64,000 bases of DNA from Oscillospiraceae bacterium (GTDB taxonomy: Bacteria; Bacillota; Clostridia; Oscillospirales; Oscillospiraceae): assembly GCA_031281255.1 (NCBI GenBank), contig JAITFR010000214.1:7996-71995 (forward strand). The letters run 5' to 3'. The notes beneath the pieces are model-generated. The model ran no database searches. It worked only from the letters and a program-made list of their open reading frames with translations, and had not been told where the DNA came from. Both the position numbers and the translations under genes were made by a program. Shown piece by piece: positions 5,136 to 19,083 of this stretch. Numbering within the stretch: the stretch's first letter is position 1; every line of letters starts with the position of its first letter.

Positions 5136-5250
5136 TGTTATAGCTAGAATATTATCTATTGTAATTACCCTTTTTTTAACTTATTTTAGCATCTTTTTTA
5201 GTTTATCTCTTAAATCATTCAATTTGTGTAGTACATTTCTCTATATTAAC

Positions 5251-5886
5251 TCACTTCGGCTTAACTTCTCCAAAAAAATGTTCTTCTAATGCTAAACATA
5301 ACGCATGGTATATCGGTACGTGCAACTCTTGGATTTTGTAAGTTTCTGTTTCTGGCACATTAATAACAATATCTGATAATGGCGCCAGTTTACCGCCACA
5401 TAAACCAGTAAGTGATATGACTTTTAAACCTTTAGCTTTAGCAACCTCTGCTGCATACAATATATTAGCTGAGTTTCCGGTTGTACTGATTGCAATCAAT
5501 ACATCTACATTTTTACCGTAACCAAACACTTGTTGAGCAAAAATAAGTTCAGAATCAGCATCATTAATATACGCTGTTATAAGGCTGACATTATTTACAA
5601 GACTAATTGCAGGAAGAGTTCTTTGTAGATTTTCGTTTAAGTAATCAGAAAATACACGTTCATCTTCTGTTAATTTTCTTGGTAGATTAAAGGATTTCAT
5701 AAGTTCACCCACGATATGTAAAGAATCTGCAGAACTACCGCCATTACCGCATATTAAAACTTTACCATCTTTTTCATAACAGTTTACTAATTTATTAAAC
5801 GCACTATGAATTTTTTCTTTAATGCTAATAAGAGTTGGGTATCGCTCAAATAATGAACCAAATATTTCTTTAGTTGCTAATCGCAT
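5251..5886 (-). CDS. gmhA: SIS-domain sugar-phosphate isomerase, GmhA (phosphoheptose isomerase) family
   Basis: CGNGGSSADSLH, ISTTGNSANI, KVISLTG..GGK and KIQELH align with the conserved GmhA blocks. Confidence 0.75.
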   Translation of the reverse strand: MRLATKEIFGSLFERYPTLISIKEKIHSAFNKLVNCYEKDGKVLICGNGGSSADSLHIVGELMKSFNLPRKLTEDERVFSDYLNENLQRTLPAISLVNNVSLITAYINDADSELIFAQQVFGYGKNVDVLIAISTTGNSANILYAAEVAKAKGLKVISLTGLCGGKLAPLSDIVINVPETETYKIQELHVPIYHALCLALEEHFFGEVKPK

Positions 5887-5913
5887 TGGTTTTCATCCTT
5901 TCCATATACACTA

Positions 5914-6873
5914 CTACTCTCCTTGTTGTATTTTATGATAATACTCATAATTTGCTAGTTGTTCATTAACAGTTGGTAATCGTTCTAATCCATCCCCGCT
6001 AAAGAAAGCATCTACTTCGCGATATAATCCTGGTTTAAACTCTATATCAATAGTATCGTCAATATGATATTTCTCAATAGCAACTGAACCTATTTTCTGA
6101 ATATGTAACTGTTCAAGTGGGCGGAAAATAAATCTTCGTTTTCTTGTAAGAATTTCCACACTCCATCTACCGGGAGCATTCCAATTCGCTTGGTATGAAA
6201 ATAATGCACCAATTTTTGATATACCTGCGCCTGAATAAATTCGAGTGCTGTCGTCATCAAACTTTATTCCTATAGATTTGGCAAAACAATTCATAATTTC
6301 CGGAAGCCCACCTAAGAAAAATGCCATATCCATAACATGTGACGAGTTGCAAATTAGTATATCTACACCATCAAATTTTTCATTCTCTTTAAATAAATGT
6401 AACCACTCTGTAAACTCAAAATTAAACGATGTTACACCGCCATCTTCTTTTATCAATCTTTCCGCAGTTAATGTTGATGAATAAAATCGTCGGTTATAAG
6501 CGATACGAACATCTGCTTCTGCATGATTTGCTACTTTATCAATGATATGAAGTTCTTCCCTATTTACTCCACCTGGTTTTTCTAATAATATTCTTTTTAC
6601 ACCTTTGTTTAATAAAACACAAGTAACATTAGCTAATTCAGAAAGACTAACTGATACAATCGCTGTTTCCGGTATCGAACACTCTAGTGCTTTATTAATT
6701 CCCCCTAGAAAAACATCTTCTCCAGTTGTTTTAGTGTATTCTTCTGCCGACAACTCTCCTCGCCCTATTGTTGTAAATGCGATTTTTTGTGCTTTTAAGA
6801 CTTTTGCGTAATATGCGGACATTAGACCAGCACCAACAAGCCAGTTCTTCTCTTTTATTATGTTATCTTGCAT
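5914..6873 (-). CDS. Gfo/Idh/MocA family NAD(P)-dependent oxidoreductase
   Basis: N-terminal Rossmann segment (LVGAGLMS) and the EKPG motif (LLEKPGG). The size is typical at 319 aa. Confidence 0.7.
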   Translation of the reverse strand: MQDNIIKEKNWLVGAGLMSAYYAKVLKAQKIAFTTIGRGELSAEEYTKTTGEDVFLGGINKALECSIPETAIVSVSLSELANVTCVLLNKGVKRILLEKPGGVNREELHIIDKVANHAEADVRIAYNRRFYSSTLTAERLIKEDGGVTSFNFEFTEWLHLFKENEKFDGVDILICNSSHVMDMAFFLGGLPEIMNCFAKSIGIKFDDDSTRIYSGAGISKIGALFSYQANWNAPGRWSVEILTRKRRFIFRPLEQLHIQKIGSVAIEKYHIDDTIDIEFKPGLYREVDAFFSGDGLERLPTVNEQLANYEYYHKIQQGE

Positions 6874-7832
6874 ATTGTCACCTCAGTTTTACTATTTTCA
6901 TTTAAATGACGAAGAAATGCTTCTAAATAAGGAATGTGTAGTTTAATAGACTCTTCATAACCTGGTAGCATACAATCTCCAGTTTCCATAAGTTGTTCTA
7001 TCAATATACCAGTTGATTGAACTGCATAAAGAAACGAAAACTCTACTGCTTCTGTTACATAATCTTTGCTTAGAAACGTCTTCTTCGCCTTATGATTATT
7101 TTCATCAATCTCATATTTATAGTTAAGGCTTTTTATTACAATTGTGCAAGATAGTTTATCTCCATCATGACAAGAAAGCAATATATTTTTGCATTTTTTT
7201 GAAACTCCTTTCATTGTTCCCAAAAACTCTATATATCCATCACGTTTGCTGTTAATATAGCCTTTCTCTAATTTAGATGCATTAAAAATAAAGCCGTCAG
7301 AATTTCTTGATATAAAAGCCAATATATCTAAAAAATGAACTCCATTACACCCTAATCCCCAGTTTACTCCGTTTACTTCAAAACTTTCAATTATTTCATC
7401 TTTCATATCTTCGTGGAGTTCTCTATAAAAATCAAACATACGGCGCGTACAGTTTACCCAAGCTTTACATGAGTGTTGTTCCAATAATTCGGATACCTCA
7501 GAATAGTCTTTTATTTCAGGGAAAAGAAACTTTTCTAGTATCATATACTTTACTTTACTGTTTTCTAATAATTCCTTAATTACTGTTTTTCGTGGACCTG
7601 ATGATGTTGCTATAATAACTATATCAAGCTCTTTAGGTAAGTTGCTTATACAGTTATAGGATTCTATAATGTTAATATGTGTATGTGACACACCGTTGTA
7701 TAACTTCATTGCTTTTTCTAATGACTCTTTTGATGTATCAACTAAGTGTATAGAAACTTGTCTTTTTATTTGAGCAACAGCTTGAAGATGACGACTGCCT
7801 ATTCCACCTACTCCTATGATTGCTATATGCAT
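6858..7832 (-). CDS. Gfo/Idh/MocA family NAD(P)-dependent oxidoreductase
   Basis: MHIAIIGVGGIGSRHL Rossmann start and an EK(F/P) motif (ILEKFLF). It overlaps the downstream paralogous oxidoreductase by 16 nt. Confidence 0.7.
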   Translation of the reverse strand: MHIAIIGVGGIGSRHLQAVAQIKRQVSIHLVDTSKESLEKAMKLYNGVSHTHINIIESYNCISNLPKELDIVIIATSSGPRKTVIKELLENSKVKYMILEKFLFPEIKDYSEVSELLEQHSCKAWVNCTRRMFDFYRELHEDMKDEIIESFEVNGVNWGLGCNGVHFLDILAFISRNSDGFIFNASKLEKGYINSKRDGYIEFLGTMKGVSKKCKNILLSCHDGDKLSCTIVIKSLNYKYEIDENNHKAKKTFLSKDYVTEAVEFSFLYAVQSTGILIEQLMETGDCMLPGYEESIKLHIPYLEAFLRHLNENSKTEVTICKIT

Positions 7833-7902
7833 TTATAGTTTACCTCAATTCTTACTAATAATAATTGTTATACAAATAACTTATCAAACTTAAACAATTT
7901 AC

Positions 7903-7931
7903 TTGCAATATCCTAACAAAAATAGTACTAT
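7903..7931 (+). promoter_or_regulatory. Candidate sigma-A promoter (TTGCAA - 17 nt - TACTAT) in the divergent intergenic region
   Basis: Hexamers read directly from the sequence. An 8-bp perfect inverted repeat (TTGCAATA at 7903-7910 and TATTGCAA at 7931-7938) brackets the element. Confidence 0.3.
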
Positions 7932-7989
7932 ATTGCAATTGTTATTTTATGTGATTCGTTTTTATAAAAATGTAAAGGAAGTATAATTA

Positions 7990-9324
7990 ATGATCAACAT
8001 GTTAAGGAGTTTCTATATAAATATTTTAGTCATTTTCTGCACACTAATTACATTTAAAGAGTTTTTTTACAAACTTTTGATAAGATTTAGAATTAATGAA
8101 AGATATACACCTTTTATAGATCTTTATAATGATGTTTTTAAAGAAAATAAAACAATTAGAGCAAATGATCTAAAAAAAATATACTCCTTTAAATATATGA
8201 ATAAAAAAGAACAAAAAATAACAGAAAAATTATGTGAGATTATTAATTTAAAAATATCAAGTAATGAATACAATCAATATATTGATTTATTTTTAAATGA
8301 GATTGAGAAACACAAAACTAAACTCTCTGTTTTATGGTTCTTAGACATTGAAACATTATCTATGTGCGGCGGTTTTTATGTGTTAGCATGGGATATTCGA
8401 CAGTTGTTAGAAACAAAATTAATAGAAAAATATGAAAACAAACAAAAGGTACATTTCTATGATACACGTAGACTGTTCTTATGTTATTTATATAAAGGTG
8501 ATTTAACAAAAGCAGAAGATGTTATAAAAAAAGCAAGTTATACATGGAAACAACGTCATGATGGATATTGGCAGTATATGTTAGCAATGACAAAAGCAAA
8601 GAATCTTGCTGACATTCCATCACTACTAAAAATGGAGAATAATAAAAATGATGATAAATACCATAACATAATTTTTGAAAAAAATATTGCAGTTTTTGGT
8701 CCTTCATCTAATGTATTGGATGTAGAGCAAATAAAAAAAGATTACGATGTGAAAATAATTATGACCTACCGTGGTGTTGAACATTTATCAGAGGTTTTAA
8801 AGAAATGTGGCATAGATGTATCATACTATAGTGTTTGGATGGGTATAAAATACACTGAGCCAATAATTCAATCTTTTCTATACGATTTAAAAATGGTTGT
8901 TTTTAAACAAATTAATAATGATAATCAAAAAGATATGATACAACAAGGTAGATCAAGAATGAGGTCAAAAAGAGATAATTGCTTGCTAATGCAAGGACAT
9001 GACTATCTAATACCATTGATTATAATGGATTTGCTACACTTTGCTCCATCTAGTATAAAACTGTTTAATTTAAATCTATTTCTACCTCATAAGAGCAGTG
9101 CATATAGAGAAGGTTATCTAGATTTAAATAATGTACCATTTGGTTTTGATAAAGGTAACAACCAGCTCAACCCTAGTAATTTTGCAATACATAATATTAT
9201 TAGTTACTATGAGTTATTAAAGTTTTGGTACACTCGAGGTTTCTTTGAAGCTGATGATGAACTATCAGAAATACTATCATTTGATACTAAAGAATACCTG
9301 CGTTTAATGGAGCAGTATTATTAA
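7990..9324 (+). CDS. Hypothetical protein; the C-terminal half has a GT42/CstII-like (sialyltransferase-like) motif pattern
   Basis: 444-aa ORF with an AAAGGAAG SD. The C-terminal half carries IAVFGPSSN...DYDVKII (compare IIAGNGPSL...DFDVFRCN in CstII) and a late FAIHNIISYYELLKF segment (compare YIGHSKNTDIKALEFL). The function is inferred only. Confidence 0.5.
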   Translation: MINMLRSFYINILVIFCTLITFKEFFYKLLIRFRINERYTPFIDLYNDVFKENKTIRANDLKKIYSFKYMNKKEQKITEKLCEIINLKISSNEYNQYIDLFLNEIEKHKTKLSVLWFLDIETLSMCGGFYVLAWDIRQLLETKLIEKYENKQKVHFYDTRRLFLCYLYKGDLTKAEDVIKKASYTWKQRHDGYWQYMLAMTKAKNLADIPSLLKMENNKNDDKYHNIIFEKNIAVFGPSSNVLDVEQIKKDYDVKIIMTYRGVEHLSEVLKKCGIDVSYYSVWMGIKYTEPIIQSFLYDLKMVVFKQINNDNQKDMIQQGRSRMRSKRDNCLLMQGHDYLIPLIIMDLLHFAPSSIKLFNLNLFLPHKSSAYREGYLDLNNVPFGFDKGNNQLNPSNFAIHNIISYYELLKFWYTRGFFEADDELSEILSFDTKEYLRLMEQYY

Positions 9325-9417
9325 TGTATGTTCATCTAGTAAATTATATGATAAAAATGTAGAAACTCAATTAGTAATTACAAAAGATACTTACTATTTC
9401 TTTTCATATAAAAACAT

Positions 9418-9446
9418 TTGATATTAATTGTGTCTTTTGTTAGTAT
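9418..9446 (+). promoter_or_regulatory. Candidate sigma-A promoter (TTGATA - 17 nt - TAGTAT) upstream of the NeuB-like gene
   Basis: Hexamers read directly from the sequence in the 156-nt gap before the synthase gene. Confidence 0.3.
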
Positions 9447-9495
9447 ATAGCAAGCTAATTTTTTAAACTACAAATTAATTGTGAGGTCAAAAATA

Positions 9496-10323
9496 ATGAG
9501 AACATTTATAATAGCAGAAATAGGTATTAACCATAACGGAAATATGGAGATAGCAAAGGATCTTATAAAAGCAGCAAAAAATGCAGATTGTGATGCAGTT
9601 AAGTTTCAAAAAAGAACAATTGATGTAGTGTATACACAGGAGTTTTTGGATGGATATCGTGAAAGCCCATGGGGTAATACACAAAGAGCACAAAAAGAAG
9701 GCTTGGAGTTTAATCTTGAGCAATATAAAGAAATTGACAGTTACTGTAAGGAACTTGATATAGCTTGGTTTGCTTCCGCTTGGGATAATGAAGCACAAAA
9801 GTTTTTAAGACAATTTAACCTAAAGTATAATAAAATAGCTTCTGCAATGAATGCAAACTATGATTTTTTGCATGAGGTTGCCGGCGAAGGAAGATATACA
9901 TTTATTTCAACAGGTATGAGCACTTATGATGAAATAGATGCTGCTGTTAATATTTTCGCAGAACACAAGTGCGAGTATGAGCTGATGCATTGCAGTAGCT
10001 TATATCCAATGCCGAAAAAAGAAGCAAATCTAAAAATGATAGAAACACTCCGTAACAAGTATAATTGCAAGGTTGGATATAGCGGACACGAAACAGGTAG
10101 AATCGTATCTTTATCTGCCGCAGTTTTAGGAGCAACATCTATAGAGCGGCATATAACCTTAGACAGAGCAATGTACGGCTCTGATCAAGCTGCATCATTG
10201 GAAGTTGGAGACATAGCACGTCTGGTTACGGATATTCGCATATTGGAGTTAATTATAGGTGATGGTATAAGGAAAATGTCGGAAGAAGAATTAGCTATGC
10301 GTAAAAAGCTAAAAGGTGATTAA
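9496..10323 (+). CDS. NeuB-family ulosonic acid (phosphate) synthase lacking the C-terminal SAF domain
   Basis: FIIAEIGINHNGNMEIAKDLIKAAKNADCDAVKFQKR is the NeuB signature. The protein ends about 60-70 aa short of SAF-containing NeuB/PseI. The ATG at 9496 has a GAGG SD; the ORF track starts at a GTG at 9481. Confidence 0.85.
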   Translation: MRTFIIAEIGINHNGNMEIAKDLIKAAKNADCDAVKFQKRTIDVVYTQEFLDGYRESPWGNTQRAQKEGLEFNLEQYKEIDSYCKELDIAWFASAWDNEAQKFLRQFNLKYNKIASAMNANYDFLHEVAGEGRYTFISTGMSTYDEIDAAVNIFAEHKCEYELMHCSSLYPMPKKEANLKMIETLRNKYNCKVGYSGHETGRIVSLSAAVLGATSIERHITLDRAMYGSDQAASLEVGDIARLVTDIRILELIIGDGIRKMSEEELAMRKKLKGD

Positions 10324-10325
10324 TT

Positions 10326-10799
10326 TTGATAAAAATTGTATTATTTGATATTGATGGTGTTCTTACTGATGGTTCTCTGCTTGTCGATTATAATGGTAAC
10401 GAGCTTAAGCAAGTTAACTTAGTGGACATTGATGCTGTTCATGCAATAAAAAAACAAGGTTTTTTGATTGGTGCTATAACTGGAGAAAATACAGCACTTT
10501 GTAACTACTTTGAAAAACGTTTCCCGTGGGATTACTTCTATTTTGGCAGAAAAGATAAACTAGATGTAATTAAAGAAATAGAAACAATTACTGGAATATC
10601 ATCATGTGAAATATGTTACATTGGTGATGGTTTTTATGACATTGAACCATTATCATACGTAGGTTTATCTGTATGTCCTAATAACGCTATAAAAGAAGTG
10701 AAGGATATTGTTGATATTTGTCTTACAAGAAATGGAGGTAGCGGTTGTATTTGGGAGTTTCGGAACATATTGTTAGAACTTAAAGAAAAAGGTGAATAA
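10326..10799 (+). CDS. HAD-IIIA phosphatase of the KdsC/YrbI family (ulosonate-phosphate phosphatase)
   Basis: FDIDGVLTDG at the N-terminus, ITGE, KDK and GDG..D blocks, and GGSGC..E near the C-terminus. The TTG start has an AAGGTGA SD 8 nt upstream. Confidence 0.85.
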   Translation: MIKIVLFDIDGVLTDGSLLVDYNGNELKQVNLVDIDAVHAIKKQGFLIGAITGENTALCNYFEKRFPWDYFYFGRKDKLDVIKEIETITGISSCEICYIGDGFYDIEPLSYVGLSVCPNNAIKEVKDIVDICLTRNGGSGCIWEFRNILLELKEKGE

Positions 10800-11476
10800 T
10801 GAACGTAGCATTTATACCAGCCAGAGGGGGCAGCAAATCCATACCAATGAAAAACATAAAAATAATTGCAGGTAAGCCTCTAATTTACTGGGCAGTCAAA
10901 GCAGCGTGTGATTGTGAATATATAGATAAGGTTTTTGTTAGTACAGATTGTGAAAAAATTGCAGATACCGTCCGAGAGTTTAATCTACAGAAAGTTATAG
11001 TGATCGGGCGATCAGTAGAGTCCGCAACAGATACAGCTTCAACGGAGATTGTTATGTTAGAGTTTGCACGTGACTACATGTTCAAAATTATTTGTTTATT
11101 ACAATCAACAACTCCATTAGTTACAGCAGAAGATCTTGAGGAAGGTTTTAAAACATTTAATCAAGAAAATGTTGATAGTGTGATATCTGTGGTAAATCAA
11201 AAGCACTTTATTTGGGAAGAAAAAGAAGATGGTTTTTCAATACCAATCAATTTCGATTATAAACAAAGACCACGAAGACAAGATTATAATGGGTATTTAG
11301 TTGAAAACGGTGCTTTTTTTATAACTAGTCGTGATGCTTTGTTAAAAAATAAGTGCAGGATTTCTGGGAATATAAAAACTGTACTAATGTCACTAGAACG
11401 TTCTGCTGAAATTGACGAACCAGAAGATTGGATTTTAGCGGAGAGGTATTTAGAACAACGGCAACTGTCATTATAA
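10799..11476 (+). CDS. CMP-ulosonic acid synthetase (NeuA/acylneuraminate cytidylyltransferase family)
   Basis: AFIPARGGSKSIPMKNIK..AGKPLI is the CTP_transf_3 signature. The start overlaps the previous stop (TAATG). Confidence 0.85.
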   Translation: MNVAFIPARGGSKSIPMKNIKIIAGKPLIYWAVKAACDCEYIDKVFVSTDCEKIADTVREFNLQKVIVIGRSVESATDTASTEIVMLEFARDYMFKIICLLQSTTPLVTAEDLEEGFKTFNQENVDSVISVVNQKHFIWEEKEDGFSIPINFDYKQRPRRQDYNGYLVENGAFFITSRDALLKNKCRISGNIKTVLMSLERSAEIDEPEDWILAERYLEQRQLSL

Positions 11477-11511
11477 TTAAATAATATCATCATTTATTGG
11501 AGGATTTCTAC

Positions 11512-12339
11512 ATGGACTCAATGGAACTTTTTAAGCTAAACAAAAAAGTAGCTATTATTACAGGTGGAGCTGGTTTTTTAGGTGAAAAACACGCTGAGGC
11601 TATTTTAGATGCAGGTGGTAGTGTTGTTATTCTTGATATAAACACGGTGCGTATGGATGCTGTTAATGATAATTTAACAAATCGTTATGATAGTAAAAAA
11701 ATACTTAACATTAAATGTGATATAACATGTAAAGAAGAAGTTGAAATCTCTTTAAAAACTATACTTAATCATTTTAAACGAGTTGATATTCTCATAAATA
11801 ATGCAGCTAATGATCCTAAAGTTGATGAGAATTTCCCTAATTGGAGTCGTTTAGAATCATTTTCTATGGAAAACTGGAATAAAGATATTACAGTTGGAAT
11901 AACAGGAGCATTTATTTGTTCACAAGTATTTGGTACATATATGGCAAAACAAAAAAATGGTACAATAATAAATGTTTCATCAGATTTAGGTATCATATCA
12001 CCGGATCAACGTTTATATCATGTTGAAGGTGTAAAAAAAGAAAATCAATCAGTAAAACCTATAACATATTCTGTTGTTAAGCATGCTTTGCTCGGTATGA
12101 CAAAATACCTTGCAACATATTGGGCTGATGATAATGTTCGTGTAAATGCATTTTGTCCTGCCGGAGTATACAATAATCATAATGAAGAGTTTGTAAAAAG
12201 AATCTCAAGTCTAATTCCATTAGGACGTATGGCAACTGAGGATGAATACAAAGGTATAATCATATTTCTATCTTCTAATGCTAGTTCTTTTATGACAGGT
12301 TCAACCGTTGTTATTGACGGTGGACGTACATGTTGGTGA
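11512..12339 (+). CDS. Classical short-chain dehydrogenase/reductase (SDR)
   Basis: TGGAGFLG cofactor motif, NNAA, and the catalytic YSVVKHAL (YxxxK). The ATG at 11512 follows GGAGGA by 7 nt. Confidence 0.85.
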   Translation: MDSMELFKLNKKVAIITGGAGFLGEKHAEAILDAGGSVVILDINTVRMDAVNDNLTNRYDSKKILNIKCDITCKEEVEISLKTILNHFKRVDILINNAANDPKVDENFPNWSRLESFSMENWNKDITVGITGAFICSQVFGTYMAKQKNGTIINVSSDLGIISPDQRLYHVEGVKKENQSVKPITYSVVKHALLGMTKYLATYWADDNVRVNAFCPAGVYNNHNEEFVKRISSLIPLGRMATEDEYKGIIIFLSSNASSFMTGSTVVIDGGRTCW

Positions 12340-12355
12340 GTAGTGGGGTTTAACA

Positions 12356-13168
12356 ATGAAATTTGGCATAATGCAAGGGCGTCTATTACCTAGACCATAT
12401 CTAAAGTTAAAAGCATTTCCACATACTTTGTGGAGAGATGAGTTCTATCTTGCAGCAAATTTAGGAATGTCTTGTATTGAGTGGGTATTTGAAGCTGATA
12501 GGTATGAGGATAATCCAATATGGGATAACGATGGACGCAAAGAAATTTGTGATTTAGTTAATAAAACTGGTGTTCAAGTTCCATCATTATGTGCAGATTA
12601 TTTCTTAACAAATCCACTACACAGAGATGCTAATGGAACAAGTTTAAAAGTTTTTAAAAAGCTAGTTCAAAAGGCTTCACAAATTGGCATTTCATTAATT
12701 TTAATACCTGTATTAGAGGAAGCAGAATTAAAATCAATAGAAGAAAAAAAGCTTCTTATAGCTGCAATAAACTCATGTGATGATTTACTAAAAAAACATA
12801 AAATAAAAATTGGTCTGGAAACTGAATTGTCCGCTCAAGAGTATTCAGAATTAGTTAAAGCTTTTAATAACAAATCGATTGGTGCTTATTATGATTCTGG
12901 CAATTTAGCATGTAAAGGTTATAATATGAAACAAGATATTGAAGTGTTGTTTCCAATTTTATTTGGTGTTCATATTAAAGATAGACCCTTTAGTGGAACA
13001 AGTGTTTATATTGGTTCTGGTGATGCAAATTTTAAAGAAGGTATACCATTATTATGTAAAAAAGGATATAATAAACCTTTAATTTTTGAGTCATTTTATG
13101 AAAATGATCCAATTGGCACTATGAAACAGAATATTATAGAGATTAAAAACTGTATAGACACTAAGTAA
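12356..13168 (+). CDS. Xylose-isomerase-like TIM-barrel protein (sugar phosphate isomerase/epimerase family)
   Basis: The size and block pattern (IEW..E, GLETE, GVHIKD) are consistent with the AP_endonuc_2 TIM-barrel family. This is a motif-level call only. Confidence 0.65.
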   Translation: MKFGIMQGRLLPRPYLKLKAFPHTLWRDEFYLAANLGMSCIEWVFEADRYEDNPIWDNDGRKEICDLVNKTGVQVPSLCADYFLTNPLHRDANGTSLKVFKKLVQKASQIGISLILIPVLEEAELKSIEEKKLLIAAINSCDDLLKKHKIKIGLETELSAQEYSELVKAFNNKSIGAYYDSGNLACKGYNMKQDIEVLFPILFGVHIKDRPFSGTSVYIGSGDANFKEGIPLLCKKGYNKPLIFESFYENDPIGTMKQNIIEIKNCIDTK

Positions 13169-13170
13169 TT

Positions 13171-14253
13171 ATGATTTTTTTAAATATTATGTATGATTTA
13201 AGAAAAGGATTAAATAGATTGATGGAAAAATTATACGGAGGAAAAATGATTTTAAAGTATGGAAAGAAAATTGATTTTCGAAAACAAGGACGAGATATAA
13301 GGTGGATTGAAGTCACAGCTTTAGAAAATACAGAAATATCAAAAAAAGCTTCAAAAAAAGCATCAATACATGTAAATTCCTGTCCAATATGTAAATCAAC
13401 TAATATAACACCACTAAAAGAAATCAATTATTTTTTTTGGAATAGGTGTGAAAATTGCGGACATTTTTTTGTTAGTAATGTACCTAGTGAGGTTTCCGAT
13501 ATCTATGAAGAAGGTAATCAAGCACAAAAAACTGTTTATATCTCTGAGGAATTATTTGTAAAAAGAAAAGAACTAATAAGCAAACCAAAAGCAGAGTTTA
13601 TAAACTCTGTTATTAAGCAATTAAATGATAGAAATAATGGTTTGTGGGTTGAAATCGGTTGCGGTGTTGGTGAGTTACTAAGCGAGGTTTCTTTATTAGG
13701 TTGGGAAACTATCGGATTTGAAGCAGACCCTAATGAAGTTGAGTTTGCACGAAAGCATGGTATTAATGTTGTGCAAATATATGTAAGAGATAGTTTTGAT
13801 AAAGAAGTTTCAGATTCATTAAAAAAAGCTGACGTTATCTCAATAATCAATGTTCTTGAGCATATTGTTGACCCTTTAAAGTGGATAACAAACATAATAT
13901 CATTTATGAAAAAAGGTTCTTATTTAGTAATTGAAGTTCCGCGCGAGACATCAATAACTGCATTTTGCAATCTTGCCGGACTCCCATACAAACACCTGGT
14001 TACAGCAGGACATTACCATATATTTTCGGAGAAATCCATGCAAATAATCCAAAACCATTGTAAACTTGAAAATATTGCAAAATGGTGCTTTGGCAATGGA
14101 TTTGTTGATCTTTTAAACACTATTTTATGGCTTAGCAATGCACAGGTAGATGCACATTTACTTGATAATATCTTAGATAAAGCAAATGATATTCAACAAA
14201 AAATTGATGAGTGTGGATTATCTGAAGCTATGTTGTTGGTCTATAGAGTATGA
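13171..14253 (+). CDS. Class I SAM-dependent methyltransferase with an N-terminal Cys4 zinc ribbon
   Basis: CPICKS...CENCGH zinc ribbon, then VEIGCGVGELL (motif I) and ISIINVLEHIVDP. The start is ambiguous (ATG at 13171, 13222 or 13246). Confidence 0.75.
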   Translation: MIFLNIMYDLRKGLNRLMEKLYGGKMILKYGKKIDFRKQGRDIRWIEVTALENTEISKKASKKASIHVNSCPICKSTNITPLKEINYFFWNRCENCGHFFVSNVPSEVSDIYEEGNQAQKTVYISEELFVKRKELISKPKAEFINSVIKQLNDRNNGLWVEIGCGVGELLSEVSLLGWETIGFEADPNEVEFARKHGINVVQIYVRDSFDKEVSDSLKKADVISIINVLEHIVDPLKWITNIISFMKKGSYLVIEVPRETSITAFCNLAGLPYKHLVTAGHYHIFSEKSMQIIQNHCKLENIAKWCFGNGFVDLLNTILWLSNAQVDAHLLDNILDKANDIQQKIDECGLSEAMLLVYRV

Positions 14254-14263
14254 GCGAATTATA

Positions 14264-16066
14264 ATGAAATCAATGAACAAACTAGTAAAGAATATACTTA
14301 ATATTAAAAATGCTATTGTTAACATATTTGTTTTCTTAATAGCTGTAATAGCAATAACACCATTAATCTATTATGGGAAAGATTCCATTATACAAGTTTT
14401 TGATAATCTAGATAGTGTTGTTCCATGGATAAAAATGCAAAAAGATACTGGGTTATTATTCGCAATAAACTCTCCTACTAATGTCATGGGCAATATGTCT
14501 ACAGCATATTTTATGCATCATTCTTTTAATTTGCTTTATATTTTATATGCAATATTTGATGTTTTTACAGCACATATACTTGGGTTTTCTATAAAAGTAT
14601 TAGCTGGCTTCATATCAATGTATCTTTTATTAAGATATTTATTTCCAGATAATAAGAATAATACGATATTTAAACTTGTTTCAATAGCTTTTGCACTACT
14701 TCCTTCACTACCAATATGGTGGTTATCTATAGACACTGTGCCCTTACTGTGTTTGGCTTTTCTGTACTTTATGAAAATTAATGATAAGTTTGATAAACGT
14801 ATTTTATTATTACTATTCTTCCCATTTTTATCAAACTTTGGACATATTGGTATTTTTTTATTAGCATTTTGGGTATTATGCACTATTATAGTATGTATAA
14901 TAAACAAAAAGCTTAACATAAATCTTATTATTGGCTTCTTTTGTTTATTAATTGGTTTTATTATAATTGATTTACGGCTATTTTATTCAGTTTTATTTCT
15001 TAATGAACCAACCAATAGATTATTATACTATAATAGTATGTCATTATTTGATGCATTTACCAGTATACCATCTATGTGGTTTGATGATTTTCTTGCTGTT
15101 TCATACCATGCACCGCACATAGCTCAATACGTTATTATACCTTTTATTTTTATAACACTAACAGTAATTTCATTATATTTTCTATACAGAGTTTCTAGAA
15201 ATGAAACACAGATTTTTTCTTCTGAACAGAAGATTTTAGCATTATATTCTACAAAAATAATCATGCTTCTTTCTATATCTGTTGTGTTCGCAGCTATTGG
15301 AACATTGTATTATATACAAATTATTAGCAATATCATCCACAGTATATTACCTTTTCTTATTGGGTTTAATTGGGGACGTATAGTATTTCTAAATCGTATA
15401 GTATTATATGTGTGTTTTGCATTTACATTAATTATTTTACCATTTGTATTCAAAAAAAGATTATTTCGTTTGCTAATATATTTCATAGCTGTGTTACAAA
15501 TAGTCGTTGTTTTGTTATACCCAACAATATATAACTATTCACGAGTAAACATTAGTCACTTTTATTTGGTTAAAAGAGACCATCATATAACATACAATGA
15601 GTTTTTTGCTGTAGAATTGTTCTCATTAATCAAAAAAGATTTACAATATGATGGTGAAGGTGTTGCAGCACTTGGGTACCATCCCAGTATACTCATGTAT
15701 AATGGTTTTTCGACAGTTGATGGTTACTTATCGGTATACCCTCTTTCACGAATGATAGCATTTCGTGAGATTATAGAACCTCAACTGGAACGCAATCACG
15801 AACACCGGGATTATTATGACGCATGGGGTGGACGTATGTATCTGTATAATGATGATTTGTCTTTCCAACCAACGCGTACAAACGTTGAATATCCGGTTAA
15901 TTTATATATAAACACCGAGGCATTTCGTAACCTCGGTGGTGTATATATACTCTCAAGAGCAGAAATAGCAAACTCTGATGAACTAGATTTAACCTTTATA
16001 AACTCTTATACCATAGAAGACTCTATATATGAGATATATGTGTATTTAGCATCAGTTCTAAATTAA
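14264..16066 (+). CDS. Large polytopic membrane protein with a C-terminal extracytoplasmic domain (possible GT-C-like polymerase or transferase; family not recognised with certainty)
   Basis: About 12 or more hydrophobic helices followed by a roughly 150-aa soluble tail. I prefer the ATG at 14264, just after the upstream TGA stop, over the overlapping ATG at 14186. Confidence 0.65.
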   Translation: MKSMNKLVKNILNIKNAIVNIFVFLIAVIAITPLIYYGKDSIIQVFDNLDSVVPWIKMQKDTGLLFAINSPTNVMGNMSTAYFMHHSFNLLYILYAIFDVFTAHILGFSIKVLAGFISMYLLLRYLFPDNKNNTIFKLVSIAFALLPSLPIWWLSIDTVPLLCLAFLYFMKINDKFDKRILLLLFFPFLSNFGHIGIFLLAFWVLCTIIVCIINKKLNINLIIGFFCLLIGFIIIDLRLFYSVLFLNEPTNRLLYYNSMSLFDAFTSIPSMWFDDFLAVSYHAPHIAQYVIIPFIFITLTVISLYFLYRVSRNETQIFSSEQKILALYSTKIIMLLSISVVFAAIGTLYYIQIISNIIHSILPFLIGFNWGRIVFLNRIVLYVCFAFTLIILPFVFKKRLFRLLIYFIAVLQIVVVLLYPTIYNYSRVNISHFYLVKRDHHITYNEFFAVELFSLIKKDLQYDGEGVAALGYHPSILMYNGFSTVDGYLSVYPLSRMIAFREIIEPQLERNHEHRDYYDAWGGRMYLYNDDLSFQPTRTNVEYPVNLYINTEAFRNLGGVYILSRAEIANSDELDLTFINSYTIEDSIYEIYVYLASVLN

Positions 16067-16150
16067 TATTACATCAACATAAAACTATCAGTTTTCTTTA
16101 TATCGAAAACATATCTGAAAACATATCTTTGCTCTGCTTATAAAACAAAA

Positions 16151-16180
16151 TTGGTAATTTTTTGATTTATAATGTATAAT
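16151..16180 (+). promoter_or_regulatory. Candidate sigma-A promoter (TTGGTA - 18 nt - TATAAT)
   Basis: Hexamers read directly from the sequence in the 138-nt gap upstream of the 16205 CDS. Confidence 0.3.
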
Positions 16181-16204
16181 ATATAGTAGTTAAAGGATTA
16201 TTAT

Positions 16205-18016
16205 ATGAAAAAAAATACAAATGTAACCCAAAATAACAATACCACATTCTTAGCTCTCACTGCTGATACTGAATTTTGGGACTTAGAGGCAGATAAGGTC
16301 ATTTTTCTTGGAGATTGGTGTAAAACGTATGATAATAAACATATTATCGATAAGTTAAACCATGAAACAATGCCTTCTCCATGGAAAAATGCTGATGAGT
16401 ATACTAGTGCTCGCAGGTATGTTAATGATACATATACAAAACTACTTCCATGTTTAGCTACCTTCATGAATGAACTACATTCCATGAATGAAGCAAACAA
16501 GTATTGGGAAATTATACTCAGTGCTTGGTTACGCTCATATATAGCACTTATGTATCATCGTTATTGTTATATAAAGAAAATGATTGCATTGGATGTTGAT
16601 TTTTTCACTTCGCTTCCTGAAAGCAATATTTATAATCCTCATTATAACACTGACAAATTTATATTTAATGCAGTTTCTGATGACACATTCAATATGACAA
16701 TATTTAGTTTGTTTTTATCTAAAATAAATCATAATATTCCTATCATAAGAAAACAAAATAAGAGATTTAGTAATAGTTGTACAAAAACAACAGGTAATGA
16801 AGTAAAATCTCTAACTAAAAAAATAAAATACATGTTTTTTGATGCGTATGTAAGCTTTATGAACAAAATTAGCAGTAAGGACATAATGTTATATCTAACA
16901 TATTTTCCTCCTAAAACTATTTTCTACATTCTTAGGAATGGAAAGAGGAAGATAGTTTGCTATAGAAAGAATAAAGAACTTAAATCAATTAATTCAAGGG
17001 TATTATTAAGAAATAACTTAACTATACAGTTTAATCACAACAATGAGTTTGAAGTTATTATAAAAGATATAATTTCAAAACATATTCCAACAATTTTTAT
17101 AGAAGGTTTTTCAGAACTTACTAAGTTCTCTGAAAAAAGTTTTAAAAATAGCTATAAATACATAGTTTCCTCAGTAGGATGGTATAATTCAGATGCTTTT
17201 AGAGTTTTCGCTGCAAACTCTAAGAGTAAAGGAAGTAAATTGATAAGTGTACAACATGGCGGTTACATGCTCGCTGAATCTTATTGGCTTTCCTTTGAAC
17301 TAAGTTTAGTCGATATTTTTTACTCATGGGGATGGAAAATCGATTATAATGATGTAGTAATTAAGAACGGTTCATTATCAAAACTTGGAAGAGATTATCA
17401 ACTCACAAACAACCGTAAAAAAATATTATTTATAAATACGTTTACGTATCGATATAATACTCTTTTTCGTAATTTCAGCTTGCATTTAGAATTATACTAC
17501 AAGGATCAGATAATTTTCATTCAAAGCCTAAACTCTAGTGCTTTTAATGATCTTGTTGTTAGACCTTATAGAAATGCAAATAATGCTATTGAGCGATACA
17601 TAGATGCTATCCCAAATGTTAAGCTTGAAAGTTGGGATGTAATACTATATGATAGTTTATCAGAGACGAGATTATTAGTTGTTGATCATTTGGCGAGTAC
17701 AACAGCATGCGAGGCTATAGCTCAAAATATACCAACCATTTTTTTCTGGCGTCCAATATTCGATGATTTTACTGAAATATCAAAACCTATATATGAAGAA
17801 TTGAAAAAAGTTGGCGTGTTTCATGACTCCCCAGAATCTGCAGCTACCTATATTAACGAAATTTATAACAGTATCGAAGATTGGTGGATGGAATCGGAAC
17901 GACAAAAAGCCATTGACACTTTTCGAAATACATTTGCATATTTGCGTGAGGATCAAGATAAGTGGTGGCTCAATGAGTTTTTAAATCTTTCTATAGAAAC
18001 TATGAGGAATAGTTAA
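16205..18016 (+). CDS. Large soluble hypothetical protein; the C-terminal half resembles a GT-B/TagF-like or capsule-type transferase
   Basis: 603-aa ORF with no TM segments. The C-terminal pattern is KKILFINTFTYR ... LVVRPY ... LLVVDHLASTTACEAIAQNIPTIFFW, which resembles the acceptor/donor domain layout of TagF/GT52-type enzymes. I recall a similar family (named after Leptospira LIC12162) next to nonulosonic acid genes, but I cannot verify that here. Confidence 0.5.
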   Translation: MKKNTNVTQNNNTTFLALTADTEFWDLEADKVIFLGDWCKTYDNKHIIDKLNHETMPSPWKNADEYTSARRYVNDTYTKLLPCLATFMNELHSMNEANKYWEIILSAWLRSYIALMYHRYCYIKKMIALDVDFFTSLPESNIYNPHYNTDKFIFNAVSDDTFNMTIFSLFLSKINHNIPIIRKQNKRFSNSCTKTTGNEVKSLTKKIKYMFFDAYVSFMNKISSKDIMLYLTYFPPKTIFYILRNGKRKIVCYRKNKELKSINSRVLLRNNLTIQFNHNNEFEVIIKDIISKHIPTIFIEGFSELTKFSEKSFKNSYKYIVSSVGWYNSDAFRVFAANSKSKGSKLISVQHGGYMLAESYWLSFELSLVDIFYSWGWKIDYNDVVIKNGSLSKLGRDYQLTNNRKKILFINTFTYRYNTLFRNFSLHLELYYKDQIIFIQSLNSSAFNDLVVRPYRNANNAIERYIDAIPNVKLESWDVILYDSLSETRLLVVDHLASTTACEAIAQNIPTIFFWRPIFDDFTEISKPIYEELKKVGVFHDSPESAATYINEIYNSIEDWWMESERQKAIDTFRNTFAYLREDQDKWWLNEFLNLSIETMRNS

Positions 18017-19083
18017 TGTTAAAACAACTGAAGAAAAGATTGTCTGGAGAAAAATACACTGAAGCTGTAGATATAATGAATAGAGTATATAGATGCAAAT
18101 ATGTACTAAAGATCATGAAAGAATCACTATCTATAGAAAACCCTAATGCTTTCTGGATTAATTGGTTTAGTAATGTAATAAGTGTTTACAATAATGATTA
18201 TATTAGAGCATTACGAATAAATAGCATAATTCCAAAACCTTTATTACCAAAGCAAATACGATCAATACTAGATAATACATACATGACAGCATGTAATTAT
18301 GCAATAAATAGCACTTGTACAAATAACAAAATCAAACTTAAAAAAGTAACACTATCACAACCAGAAACTGAACTAGATACTTTCACATTCATAAATAATA
18401 TCCTTGAAATATTCACAACATATCTATTAAATGATGTTGATAAAAATATTTTGTATGATTTTTTTGATTCTGTTCCGTTTCATCAATATTTTTCCGGTCC
18501 TTACGAGTATGAGAAAGTAAAGTTAAGCAGTAATGATATTGTAATTGATGCAGGTGCAAACGAGGGATTATTCTCTGCATTATGTAGTGCAAAAGGCTGT
18601 TCAGCTTATGCTTTTGAACCAATACCTCAAACTATTACGCACTTAAATGCTACGGCTAAATTAAATCCGAATATTACAATATGTAATTATGCATTATCTG
18701 ATTTTTGCGGTGATATAAATTTTAATTACGATTCCATTTTACCGGTCGCAGCAACATATGTTGAAAACAGTTTAGGTATTAATAAAAATAATAGTGAACT
18801 AATAAAGTGTAAAACTATAACTCTTGATAGTTTTGTAGATCAATGTAATCTCCCAAAAATTGACTTCATTAAAGCTGACATTGAAGGTGCTGAGCGTGAT
18901 ATGCTAAGAGGTGCAAAGAATGTTTTAAAGGATTTTGCACCAAAATTATCAATATGTACATATCACCTCCCAGATGACCCTCAAGTATTAAGAGAGTTAA
19001 TACTTGAGGCAAACCCAAACTATATCATTGAAGAACGATGGCATAAAATGTACGCTAATGTACCTAATAACAAGGAGATGTAA
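18016..19083 (+). CDS. FkbM-family methyltransferase
   Basis: VIDAGANEGLFS and IDFIKADIEGAERDMLRGA are hallmark FkbM (TIGR01444-type) blocks. The start overlaps the previous stop (TAATG). Confidence 0.85.
   Translation: MLKQLKKRLSGEKYTEAVDIMNRVYRCKYVLKIMKESLSIENPNAFWINWFSNVISVYNNDYIRALRINSIIPKPLLPKQIRSILDNTYMTACNYAINSTCTNNKIKLKKVTLSQPETELDTFTFINNILEIFTTYLLNDVDKNILYDFFDSVPFHQYFSGPYEYEKVKLSSNDIVIDAGANEGLFSALCSAKGCSAYAFEPIPQTITHLNATAKLNPNITICNYALSDFCGDINFNYDSILPVAATYVENSLGINKNNSELIKCKTITLDSFVDQCNLPKIDFIKADIEGAERDMLRGAKNVLKDFAPKLSICTYHLPDDPQVLRELILEANPNYIIEERWHKMYANVPNNKEM

Follow-up and report, generated by a model that had tools for sequence, protein, structure and literature searches.

The region at about positions 5251-19083 of the 64,000-nucleotide stretch analysed here (the window), from a gut Oscillospiraceae bacterium, probably consists of two divergent operons and carries one version of a conserved, uncharacterised and widely distributed route to a CMP-activated 3-deoxy-2-ulosonic acid. 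In the proposed core, a GmhA-type SIS isomerase would convert a ketose phosphate into an aldose phosphate, a NeuB-family synthase would condense the latter with PEP to a 3-deoxy-2-ulosonate carrying a terminal phosphate, a HAD phosphatase would release the ulosonate, and a cytidylyltransferase would turn it into the CMP-sugar. Because related loci have a GmhA-type gene next to that of the synthase or in fusion with that of the phosphatase, this core follows the logic of the Kdo pathway (KdsD-KdsA-KdsC-KdsB), although two of the cassette enzymes belong to families that differ from those of Kdo synthesis. The gene coupling, fusions, recurrent co-location and family assignments are observations, and all substrates and the tailoring order are inferences. 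No paper describing this cassette was found in the literature, in agreement with the first-pass annotation, which had called the pathway apparently uncharacterised.

Gene organization of the locus

Ten open reading frames, all on the plus strand, fill positions 7990-19083, and TAATG stop/start overlaps join the phosphatase gene to the cytidylyltransferase gene (10797-10801) and the LIC12162-family gene to the FkbM gene (18014-18018); the co-directional, coupled operon described in the first-pass annotation is confirmed. With intergenic spaces of 171 nt (9325-9495) and of 138 nt (16067-16204), the interval may comprise as many as three co-directional transcription units. The probable start codons are ATG 9496 in the synthase gene, with a GAGG ribosome-binding site and in agreement with the database protein P0001, ATG 11512 for the short-chain dehydrogenase/reductase (SDR), and ATG 14264 for the DUF6044 gene, downstream of the methyltransferase stop codon. 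Pfam and NCBIfam matches bear out the earlier domain calls, and domain searches likewise found no NeuC-type epimerase, aminotransferase or acetyltransferase within 7990-19083. The first gene of the interval (7990-9324, 444 aa) had been left undescribed, and the GmhA-type isomerase and Gfo/Idh/MocA genes of the divergent upstream operon (5251-7832) had been overlooked.

The SAF-less synthase

The synthase (9496-10323, plus strand, 275 aa) is matched by PF03102 alone (235.7 bits), a Pfam search finding no SAF domain, and it scores under the NCBIfam equivalog cut-offs for NeuB and PseI. Judged by its sequence, its clade is separate from characterised relatives, as had been proposed. The members, of about 275-280 aa, are very conserved (52-80% identity) and range from Firmicutes to a Woesearchaeote, whose synthase is 52% identical to that of the window; identities are 67-80% in one comparison set and 57-63% for metagenome relatives (80 loci drawn from 588 confirmed relatives). 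All characterised relatives tested share 28-38% identity with it: 28% for the window's own PseI, 31% for the Bacteroides Kdn-9-P synthase (BT1714 orthologue), which, unlike the window synthase, has a SAF domain, and about 32-38% for the Leptospira NeuB structure. The best tested match is, provisionally, human NANS, a phosphosugar-using enzyme (37% identity, 194 bits, 3 gaps). The loop KFQK[RS]...[WF]GxT...LE[FL] is common to the synthase, NANS and BT1714, and the motif GYSGHE to the synthase and NANS, whereas PseI lacks both.

The GmhA-type isomerase and the length of the sugar

The proposed first enzyme (5251-5886, minus strand, 211 aa, Pfam SIS_2) looks like an active GmhA. Its best PDB matches are GmhA structures (E 2e-30), and it keeps the Zn/catalytic residues H61, E65, Q172 and H180, their roles being taken from work on GmhA (PMC5387315). 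These residues are kept in all 28 cassette SIS domains. So is the phosphate loop, in which no changes beyond conservative Ser/Thr exchanges occur; it reads S-T-T-G-x-S in the window as opposed to S-T-S-G-x-S in GmhA. SIS orthologues 45-49% identical to that of the window adjoin the synthase in L097 and L098, and in L012 the gene order is SIS-synthase-HAD. Against the proposed pathway stand the scores with NCBIfam GmhA models, which at 146-148 bits (146-190 in all) are below all cut-offs (209-276), the replacement of Arg69 in the window isomerase, a position at which 26 of the 27 other cassette SIS domains carry Arg or Lys, and Asp169, conserved in none of the 28. The location of the window isomerase in a separate, divergent operon also speaks against it.

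An entry enzyme resembling sedoheptulose-7-P isomerase hints at a heptose-7-P substrate, and therefore at a C10 ulosonate; a route from sedoheptulose-7-P through D-glycero-D-manno-heptose-7-P to a C10 homologue of Kdn is thus a real possibility, though short of probable. A Kdn-type C9 sugar made from Fru-6-P/Man-6-P can be suggested just as tentatively, and is favoured by a more distant SAF-less relative from Nonomuraea, with a synthase 47% identical, a CT::HAD fusion of cytidylyltransferase and phosphatase and no SIS, which resembles the operon that has been associated with Kdn teichulosonic acid in Streptomyces. The Kdn-like core put forward in the first-pass annotation is not established, given the SAF domain and low identity of the BT1714 orthologue and the heptose-7-P raised by the GmhA-type isomerase. 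It is unlikely that the product is something else than these two sugars.

Phosphatase, cytidylyltransferase and co-location

The KdsC/YrbI-family HAD phosphatase (10326-10799, plus strand, 157 aa) passes TIGR01670 (110.1 bits, cut-off 106.95) and scores 113.7 bits with the Kdn-9-P phosphatase model NF058599, under its cut-off of 180. Because its best PDB match is the Kdn-9-P phosphatase BT1713 (3E81) and it keeps the Glu of BT1713 position 56, which is Arg in KdsC, it resembles a nonulosonate-phosphate phosphatase. The occurrence of the synthase with a KdsC-type HAD in one operon supports the phosphorylated intermediate that had been deduced. The CMP-ulosonate synthetase (10799-11476, plus strand, 225 aa, PF02348, CTP_transf_3) reaches 120 bits with the PseF model, under the cut-off of 205.7, and shares 59% identity with its counterpart in the L004 cassette.

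The core steps are linked by gene fusions, namely HAD::SIS in L001, L004 and L015, HAD::NeuB in P0120, and CT::HAD in L092, L048 and L099. Among 15 loci whose sequence extends 6 kb or more to either side of the synthase, a cytidylyltransferase was present in 13, a SIS in nine, a HAD, a TIM barrel and a second SDR in eight each, and a PtmA-like SDR in seven. In L097, whose synthase is 77% identical, the order is synthase-SIS-CT-SDR-x-methyltransferase, with a SIS 45% and a methyltransferase 63% identical to those of the window. Further points against the proposed pathway are that no HAD was detectable within 10 kb in L097 and L098, the two closest relatives, and that neither SIS nor HAD was seen in the cassettes of L018, L044, L069 and L083.

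Candidate tailoring enzymes

Genes for a UlaE-like TIM barrel, a PtmA-like SDR and methyltransferases recur together with the cassette. The classical SDR (11512-12339, plus strand, adh_short), a candidate tailoring or precursor oxidoreductase, matches PRK09186 best in NCBIfam (167 bits) and the PtmA model weakly (123 bits); PtmA-like SDR orthologues are present in 18 of 40 loci, those of L001, L007 and L092 being 50-54% identical. The xylose-isomerase-like TIM barrel (12356-13168, plus strand, PF01261, AP_endonuc_2), found in 20 of 40 related loci, is a putative UlaE-like sugar-phosphate epimerase/isomerase, with UlaE as its sole PDB match (E 1.5e-11) and 48-59 bits with L-ribulose-5-P 3-epimerase models. 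In the divergent operon, the first gene encodes a Gfo/Idh/MocA NAD(P) oxidoreductase (6858-7832, minus strand, 324 aa, PF01408, E 1.5e-14), which is overlapped by 16 nt by the gene of a 319-aa, weakly Gfo/Idh/MocA-like protein (5914-6873, minus strand; PRK11579, E 2.9e-4; PDB matches to oxidoreductases and inositol dehydrogenases, E 0.02-0.2), placed in the pathway by position alone. In related loci Gfo/Idh/MocA genes, like that of the isomerase, adjoin the synthase, and in L001, L028, L042 and L046 GFO-family genes, not orthologous to 6858-7832, occur together with those of the TIM barrel and the SDR. Acting on either the precursor or the product, the TIM barrel, the SDR and the Gfo/Idh/MocA proteins would alter its stereochemistry or oxidation state.

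Methylation of the sugar would fall to two enzymes, a SAM methyltransferase (13171-14253, plus strand, Methyltransf_23) with an N-terminal four-cysteine, zinc-ribbon-like motif (CxxC...CxxC, CPICKS...CENCGH in translation), which has orthologues 57-63% identical in the L097 and L098 cassettes, and an FkbM-family methyltransferase (18016-19083, plus strand, PF05050 and TIGR01444) extended at its N-terminus by about 170 aa. FkbM genes also occur in L001, L004, L015 and L098.

Amination and the pseudaminic acid region

The coexisting pseudaminic acid pathway noted earlier is indeed present in the window; PseB, PseC, PseI, PseF and PseG (44468-45397) score above their cut-offs, while for PseH there are weak GNAT matches only. 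Domain searches of this region also delineate a minus-strand module (54577-58401) of a KdsB-like second cytidylyltransferase (57634-58401), a class-III aminotransferase (56295-57611), a WbuX amidotransferase (55130-56263) and a GNAT (54577-55128). Orthologues of its genes lie inside SAF-less-synthase cassettes of other genomes: GNAT (86 bits) and aminotransferase (248 bits) in L036, aminotransferase (228 bits) in L075, aminotransferase (228 bits) and WbuX (126 bits) in L022, and second-type cytidylyltransferase (149 bits) and aminotransferase (229 bits) in L093. In L032, L047 and L079 a second-type cytidylyltransferase stands directly 3' of the synthase. The module may thus act on the same sugar as the operon, and since its orthologues sit inside cassettes elsewhere, an operon without an aminotransferase does not establish the non-aminated core that had been argued from it.

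Proposed transfer and export

Three proteins would install the sugar in a surface glycan. The 444-aa candidate glycosyltransferase (7990-9324, plus strand) combines an N-terminal TPR-like helical domain with a C-terminal alpha/beta domain carrying the motif GKxIAIxGPA...DxVIRxNY; it has no Pfam or NCBIfam match and 325 homologues among representative proteins. Its AlphaFold2 model (pLDDT 89, pTM 0.91) gave weak Foldseek matches only (SPINDLY/OGT, E 0.03; Cst-II, E 1.5), a GT29 sialyltransferase model weakly matches two of 40 family members, and hhalign comparisons with Cst-II and with a Maf-like protein were not significant. The polytopic membrane protein DUF6044 (14264-16066, plus strand, PF19510, 403.5 bits), for which no counterpart was seen in the other cassettes inspected, is possibly a membrane glycosyltransferase or polymerase. 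The third, formerly described as a large orphan transferase-like protein, is no orphan, as it belongs to the LIC12162 family of putative transferases (16205-18016, plus strand, TIGR04331/PF27859, 379.7 bits, cut-off 225). A gene of this family is reported to adjoin neuABC in Herbaspirillum, and homologues lie directly 3' of the SDR in L045 and L048; another, 54% identical, has no adjoining cassette in its MAG. For the window protein, AlphaFold2 yields a low-confidence model (pLDDT 49.5) that matches GT-B/TagF weakly.

A PglK/MsbA-like ABC flippase (21391-23121, plus strand; NF050066 PglK, 332 bits, under cut-off), whose homologues flank the cassette in six to seven related loci, possibly exports a lipid-linked glycan bearing the sugar. 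The cassette is unusually widespread, being common to hundreds of environmental microbes.

Organisation of the operon

Ten open reading frames, all read in the same direction, occupy positions 7990–19083 (+) of the window, which has a G+C content of about 30%. The domain calls made for them in the first-pass annotation are borne out by Pfam and NCBIfam matches. A gene for a 444-residue protein is followed by a synthase with a NeuB domain but without SAF (9496–10323), a HAD phosphatase of the KdsC/YrbI type (10326–10799), a CTP_transf_3 cytidylyltransferase (10799–11476), a classical SDR, a xylose-isomerase-like TIM barrel, a Methyltransf_23 methyltransferase with a four-cysteine motif at its N-terminus, a DUF6044 membrane protein and, at the end, an FkbM methyltransferase. 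The 603-residue protein encoded before the latter had been regarded as an orphan, but it clearly belongs to the LIC12162 transferases (TIGR04331; score 379.7 bits, cut-off 225, profile positions 1–585), and PF27859 is also on record for it. The TAATG overlaps are present at 10797–10801 and 18014–18018, and the likely true starts of the synthase, SDR and DUF6044 genes are ATG 9496, ATG 11512 and ATG 14264, respectively. Gaps of 171 nt and 138 nt make up to three transcription units possible. A promoter and terminator scan of the AT-rich DNA of the window performed no better than on shuffled sequence, and Rfam and tRNA scans gave no matches.

A SAF-less synthase clade

The synthase, which is identical to a protein from an Oscillospiraceae MAG, matches PF03102 with 235.7 bits over profile positions 1–240 of 241, and in the alignment it has the invariant columns E8, N12, H13, K36, H198, E217 and H219 in common with PseI, human NANS and an orthologue of the Kdn-9-P synthase BT1714. 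The C-terminal SAF (antifreeze-like) domain is absent, as translation stops after residue 275 and the HAD gene begins 3 nt further on. Its best 120 database relatives, which are 67–80% identical, are 274–307 residues long and have PF03102 as their sole domain, except for one protein of 468 residues that is fused to a HAD domain. The protein search gave at least 8000 scored candidates, all with E values of 1e-10 or better, and an alignment-based metagenome scan confirmed 588 of 600 sampled matches as relatives, the best 80 of which are 56–65% identical and come from marine, freshwater and soil samples; a scan of a genome collection with the single synthase sequence yielded four loci only. A Woesearchaeote copy is 52% identical, and identity within the core clade spans 52–80% across phyla. 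PGAP labels members of the clade only as “N-acetylneuraminate synthase family protein”, even in the cultured Azospirillum thermophilum, and their neighbours as “HAD hydrolase” or “TIM barrel protein”.

None of the characterised enzymes compared is close to this clade. The synthase scores 247.5 bits on the N-acetylneuraminate synthase model TIGR03569, below the equivalog cut-off of 399.65, and 187.1 bits on the pseudaminic acid synthase model TIGR03586 (cut-off 340.25), on which the true PseI of the window reaches 460.8 bits. Among the comparators, the SAF-less NeuB structure of Leptospira (6NCS) gives an E value of 6e-38, Campylobacter jejuni PseI 7e-34 and Neisseria meningitidis NeuB 4e-23. 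The PseI of the window is 28% identical, and the BT1714 orthologue (L091:578–1618), which was reached by a search with the BT1713 sequence and then taken as the neighbouring gene, is 31% identical (114 bits) and has 346 residues with a SAF domain. The best match tested is human NANS, with 37% identity, 194 bits and three gaps against a provisional reference sequence; it differs from the synthase of the window in its C-terminal AFP/SAF domain. The synthase had been set apart from the bacterial NeuB and LegI routes, and identities of 28–31% to PseI and BT1714 and 37% to NANS do place it outside the characterised NeuB/LegI clade.

The alignment also shows a loop, KFQK[RS]...[WF]GxT...LE[FL], that is common to the synthase clade, NANS and BT1714, and a motif, GYSGHE, that is common to the clade and NANS; PseI enzymes have neither. 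As NANS and BT1714 both use sugar phosphates, it is plausible from these motifs that the synthase takes a phosphorylated substrate, too.

An upstream isomerase of the GmhA type

Directly upstream, three genes run divergently from the operon, encoding a Gfo/Idh/MocA oxidoreductase (6858–7832, −), a 319-residue protein weakly related to this family (5914–6873, −) and a SIS_2 protein (5251–5886, −). The SIS protein scores 146–148 bits on GmhA models, below their cut-offs of 209–276; on TIGR00441 (cut-off 209.45) it reaches 146 bits and the SIS domain of a fusion protein from the related locus L001 183 bits, both being below. Its top PDB matches are GmhA structures, and the zinc and catalytic residues of GmhA (His61, Glu65, a Gln and a His) are kept in all 28 SIS domains found in cassettes, the conserved gene sets around relatives of the synthase. 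The Ser-Thr-Ser phosphate loop shows at most one conservative Ser/Thr exchange in the same 28 domains, reading S-T-T in the window. Ligand residue identities were taken from the literature (PMC5387315), and the residues were aligned to a provisional sequence of Escherichia coli GmhA. Downstream of the SIS gene, at 3576–5135 (−), lie a PMT_2 (GT-C-like) reading frame of 183 residues and an unannotated one of 312 residues, which may together represent a membrane glycosyltransferase that has been split or truncated.

Because the SIS gene sits beside the core genes, or is fused to them, in related loci, it is assigned to the same pathway. In L001 and L004, with synthases 70% and 68% identical to that of the window, a 360-residue HAD::SIS fusion is encoded directly upstream of the synthase and cytidylyltransferase, and L015 has such a fusion also. 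The closest relative, L097 (synthase 77%), has the order synthase-SIS-cytidylyltransferase-SDR-x-methyltransferase, with 45% identity to the window in the SIS protein and 63% in the methyltransferase, and L098 (synthase 75%) and L012 are arranged similarly. It might be argued that the SIS and Gfo/Idh/MocA genes have nothing to do with the synthase and feed a nucleotide-heptose or another sugar to nearby glycosyltransferases, the synthase drawing an aldose phosphate from central metabolism. The separate, divergent operon and the abundance of glycosyltransferases in the locus, which also holds a ManC-like gene, would suit this. We consider it improbable, however, given that a heptose kinase, GmhB and a heptose nucleotidyltransferase are all absent near the SIS gene, and that orthologous SIS genes directly adjoin the synthase in L097 and L012 and form fusions with the phosphatase in L001, L004 and L015.

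Conservation of the cassette

Further fusions, namely HAD::NeuB in the database relative P0120 and cytidylyltransferase::HAD in Azospirillum, Nonomuraea and L048, also tie steps of the pathway together. Of the related loci, 15 extend 6 kb or more to either side of the synthase; among these, the cytidylyltransferase is found in 13, SIS in nine, HAD, the TIM barrel and a second SDR in eight each, a PtmA-like SDR in seven and a Gfo/Idh/MocA protein in four. Clustering of neighbouring reading frames adds a VOC/glyoxalase-fold protein (12 loci), a B12-radical-SAM protein (10 loci), and class-IV aminotransferases, KpsC/KpsS-like Capsule_synth transferases and PglK-like ABC flippases (seven loci each).

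Some of these loci deserve description in their own right. On an Azospirillum thermophilum plasmid (NZ_CP029359; L092, 1–28633), a complete legionaminic acid pathway adjoins the cassette back-to-back, and an IS21 element interrupts the cassette, which comprises the synthase, a cytidylyltransferase::HAD fusion, a TylF methyltransferase, a PhyH dioxygenase, three SDRs, a TIM barrel, a radical SAM protein and a cytidylyltransferase. The archaeal cassette of a Woesearchaeote (L007, 9794–16318) is a tight set of eight genes, in the order synthase, cytidylyltransferase, class-III aminotransferase, VOC/glyoxalase-fold protein, TIM barrel, FabG-like SDR, PtmA-like SDR and HAD, with a B12-radical-SAM gene nearby and no SIS gene within 10 kb. 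In L001, L004 and L097, many of the neighbouring tailoring enzymes, including methyltransferases, GT2, GT8, radical SAM and MptE/Maf-like proteins, have an N-terminal “C2185-like_N” domain (PF22674), which suggests a common docking target, perhaps a glycoprotein substrate.

Proposed core reactions and possible chain length of the product

The core would consist of an isomerase, a PEP-condensing synthase, a phosphatase and a cytidylyltransferase, and would thus follow the logic of the Kdo pathway (KdsD, KdsA, KdsC, KdsB), in which a SIS-fold isomerase, condensation with PEP, a KdsC-family HAD and a CTP_transf_3 enzyme are also found. Two enzymes would be exchanged, a GmhA-type (SIS_2) isomerase standing in for KdsD and a NeuB-family TIM barrel for the DAHP-synthase-like KdsA.

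The phosphatase scores 110.1 bits on TIGR01670, above the subfamily cut-off of 106.95, and has the catalytic DxDGV motif in the form FDIDGVLTDG. Its top PDB match is the Kdn-9-P phosphatase BT1713, of which it keeps Glu56, a position where the KdsC enzymes compared have Arg, and replaces Lys67 by Arg. Lu and colleagues reportedly described these two residues as specificity markers in 2009. On the Kdn-9-P phosphatase equivalog model NF058599, the protein scores 113.7 bits, below the cut-off of 180. The cytidylyltransferase of the operon scores higher on models of the PseF/NeuA type than on KdsB models. A Kdo-type (C8) product, for which the NeuB-family enzyme would act on arabinose-5-P as a non-orthologous substitute of KdsA, would agree with the four-step logic, the TIGR01670 and CTP_transf_3 assignments and the Capsule_synth transferases beside several cassettes; with an isomerase that resembles GmhA rather than KdsD, Glu in place of Arg in the phosphatase and the scores of the cytidylyltransferase speaking against it, we regard it as highly improbable.

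The two leading readings are a C10 product derived from sedoheptulose-7-P and a Kdn-type C9 product, which we rate about equal. According to the former, which we put forward tentatively, the synthase would condense PEP with a heptose phosphate to give a 3-deoxy-dec-2-ulosonic acid, one carbon longer than Kdn, and this acid would then be dephosphorylated, CMP-activated and O-methylated. The invariance of the GmhA active-site residues in the cassette SIS domains points this way, since these residues, together with the phosphate loop, are predicted to set how far the phosphate lies from the reacting carbons. We know of no GmhA-family enzyme acting on hexose phosphates, and heptose-7-P is, to our knowledge, not otherwise made by Gram-positive bacteria. 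A dedicated isomerase would be sensible for heptose-7-P and less so for the ubiquitous Man-6-P, which favours the C10 acid. One distant relative, on plasmid pRS11DPr1 of Methylomagnum ishizawai (L093, synthase 46% identical), carries a split transketolase in its operon, which also argues for the longer chain.

The operon in question (5014–11459) combines the SAF-less synthase with a KdsB-like nucleotidyltransferase, the N and C halves of the transketolase, a class-III aminotransferase, a PtmA-like SDR and a HAD protein, and the transketolase suggests a dedicated supply of ketose phosphate there. As a common partner of the cassette, transketolase was discarded, as it occurs only in Methylomagnum and matches elsewhere are weak.

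A non-aminated C9 sugar of the Kdn type, made from Man-6-P as by BT1713–BT1715 of Bacteroides thetaiotaomicron and NANS/NANP of animals, and later epimerised, oxidised or reduced, and O-methylated, is an equally tentative reading, in which the GmhA-like protein would be a Fru-6-P/Man-6-P isomerase or stand outside the pathway. The Bacteroides system has the same three kinds of enzyme (phosphatase BT1713, synthase BT1714 and CMP-Kdn synthetase BT1715), with a synthase that acts on a sugar phosphate, as proposed here, and the animal route (NANS, NANP, CMAS) likewise proceeds through a phosphorylated intermediate. The BT1713 match of the phosphatase with its conserved Glu56 is in favour of this reading, as is the synthase loop shared with NANS and BT1714, both of which accept Man-6-P, and so are the two methyltransferases and the lack of an aminotransferase within the operon. 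A SAF-less relative in Nonomuraea (47%), outside the 52–80% core clade, occurs in a cytidylyltransferase::HAD-NeuB-GT2 arrangement without any SIS, which resembles the Streptomyces operon SCO4879–SCO4881; the latter, with NeuA/NeuB-type genes, is linked to a Gram-positive wall glycopolymer, the Kdn-containing teichulosonic acid of Streptomyces walls, which is often methylated.

Against the C9 product stand the SAF domain and low identity of the BT1714 orthologue, the NF058599 score below the cut-off, and the frequency in the cassette of a GmhA-type isomerase with intact active site, sometimes fused to the phosphatase, which one would not anticipate for a synthase that uses housekeeping Man-6-P. 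One short BT1713/BT1714 contig showed no isomerase, TIM barrel, SDR or methyltransferase, and the actinomycete teichulosonic (Kdn) system no GmhA-type isomerase, TIM barrel or SDR. The phosphatase NANP belongs to a HAD subfamily different from that of the window.

Possible amination and the pseudaminic acid genes

The window contains three cytidylyltransferases and, as had been stated, a co-resident pseudaminic acid pathway: PseB (520 bits, cut-off 408), PseC (461, cut-off 424), PseF (307, cut-off 206), PseI (461, cut-off 340) and PseG (168, cut-off 154) all exceed their cut-offs, while the call of PseH is weak, with GNAT matches only that fall below the PseH cut-off. PseF (58401–59966, −; 521 residues) is fused to a C-terminal aldo-keto-reductase-like domain, and a reading frame of this kind also follows a cytidylyltransferase in a Pelagibacteraceae locus, L008.

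Among the Pse genes lie a GNAT (54577–55128, −), a WbuX amidotransferase (55130–56263, −), a class-III aminotransferase (56295–57611, −) and a KdsB-like cytidylyltransferase of a second type (57634–58401, −). Orthologues of these genes are found inside cassettes with SAF-less synthases in L036 (in the order SIS-HAD-synthase-TIM barrel-GNAT-cytidylyltransferase-aminotransferase), L075, L022, L085 and the Methylomagnum locus L093; in L032, L047 and L079 the second type of cytidylyltransferase comes straight after the synthase, and class-III aminotransferases are recurrent neighbours of the synthase, in 13 loci. The earlier argument for a non-aminated sugar is correct in that the operon has no aminotransferase, but it is weakened by these orthologues, which also speak against a non-aminated C9 product.

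The final sugar could accordingly be aminated and N-acylated by the 54577–58401 genes with the SDR of the operon, giving a Neu-like or amino-C10 ulosonate. The ketose phosphate might be transaminated and oxidised by the SDR to a 2-amino-aldose phosphate before condensation, or amination might occur on an oxidised ulosonate, and either route would differ from the Pse and Leg paths. A point in favour, besides the orthologues and the clustering, comes from C. jejuni, where the amino-sugar-phosphate part of the Leg pathway is listed as PtmA, which is an SDR, and PtmF, which is an oxidoreductase. The SDR of the window is PtmA-like, with 123 bits on NF050066, far below the equivalog cut-off of 350, and a Gfo/Idh/MocA-type oxidoreductase accompanies the nonulosonate locus in both cases. 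A link between PtmF and the SIS protein was dropped, as PtmF is listed as a 326-residue oxidoreductase. We nevertheless think amination unlikely, because the module is found among Pse genes on the opposite strand, some 38 kb from the operon, and could equally modify Pse, and because no aminotransferase was found in the cassettes of the closest relatives, L097 and L098. WbuX/PseA-type amidotransferases make Pse5Ac7Am, and the Leg pathway uses GDP-linked amino sugars and a SAF-containing LegI.

Proposed tailoring and transfer

The only solved relative of the TIM barrel is UlaE, a ketose-phosphate 3-epimerase, and by this likeness the protein may work on the ketose phosphate before isomerisation. 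PtmA-like SDR orthologues with 50–54% identity occur in L001, L007 and Azospirillum. The zinc-ribbon methyltransferase is kept in the closest relatives, which makes it probable that the product is indeed methylated.

Candidates for transfer are the LIC12162-family, 444-residue and DUF6044 proteins, the last of which was found at the window locus only, among the loci examined. In L045 and L048, a LIC12162 homologue comes after the cassette, and one neighbours neuABC in Herbaspirillum. The protein was rejected as an obligatory partner, since a 54% identical homologue in another MAG is found among GT8 genes with no cassette nearby. Its structural model, built with four homologues only, has a pLDDT of 49.5, and the Foldseek matches of this poor model to TagF (E 8e-4) and other GT-B enzymes are weak. 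For the 444-residue protein, the structural model is confident and comprises a TPR-like and an alpha/beta domain. There are only hints of likeness to sialyltransferases, in that two of 40 relatives weakly match GT29 (PF00777; best E 0.004). A resemblance in motifs to Cst-II/GT42-like or Maf-like transferases found no confirmation by hhalign (probability 1.7% with Cst-II), and Foldseek, despite the good model, gave no significant match (Cst-II at E 1.5, TM 0.40).

Downstream of the operon, at 21391–23121 (+), a PglK/MsbA-like ABC flippase is encoded, which suggests assembly on a lipid carrier; homologous ABC genes lie beside cassettes in environmental loci including L026, L034, L036 and L038. 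A run of very large multidomain glycosyltransferases at 28862–47523 (−) includes an 849-residue GT8, two GT2+GT4 fusions of about 790 residues, two paralogous GT4 proteins of about 670 residues, and proteins of 560 and 709 residues without a family match. The border of the glycan locus is occupied by a subtilisin-like serine protease with mycosin/dentilisin-like matches (62563–63912, −).

Biological significance

Bacteria cap their surface glycans and flagella with sialic-acid-like sugars, which shape immune and phage recognition. In the literature searched, no description of this synthase clade or pathway was found, nor any report that links a GmhA-type isomerase with a NeuB-type synthase or combines nonulosonic acid with sedoheptulose. 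A 2026 preprint gives the first evidence of CMP-activated C10 ulosonic acids, in Magnetospirillum, without assigning genes. A route from heptose and PEP would be a timely candidate source of these acids, although the Magnetospirillum compound is di-N-acetylated and may have a different origin.

There is, in our estimate, a realistic if less than even chance that the product is a new class of sugar. If the C10 acid is true, its pathway would provide the first route for the biosynthesis of a “higher-carbon” ulosonic acid; up to now, such acids are on record only from Magnetospirillum, as C10 signals in mass spectrometry that lack an explanation. The gene set is distributed among gut, marine, freshwater and soil microbes and at least one archaeon, with Azospirillum thermophilum and Methylomagnum ishizawai as cultured carriers, and the clade is abundant, yet annotation pipelines give it generic names only. 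Knowing its product would close a large gap in the maps of nonulosonic acid biosynthesis and account for the fusion of a heptose-type isomerase with a Kdo/Kdn-type phosphatase, and the clade may provide the genes still lacking for the C10 ulosonic acids seen by mass spectrometry.
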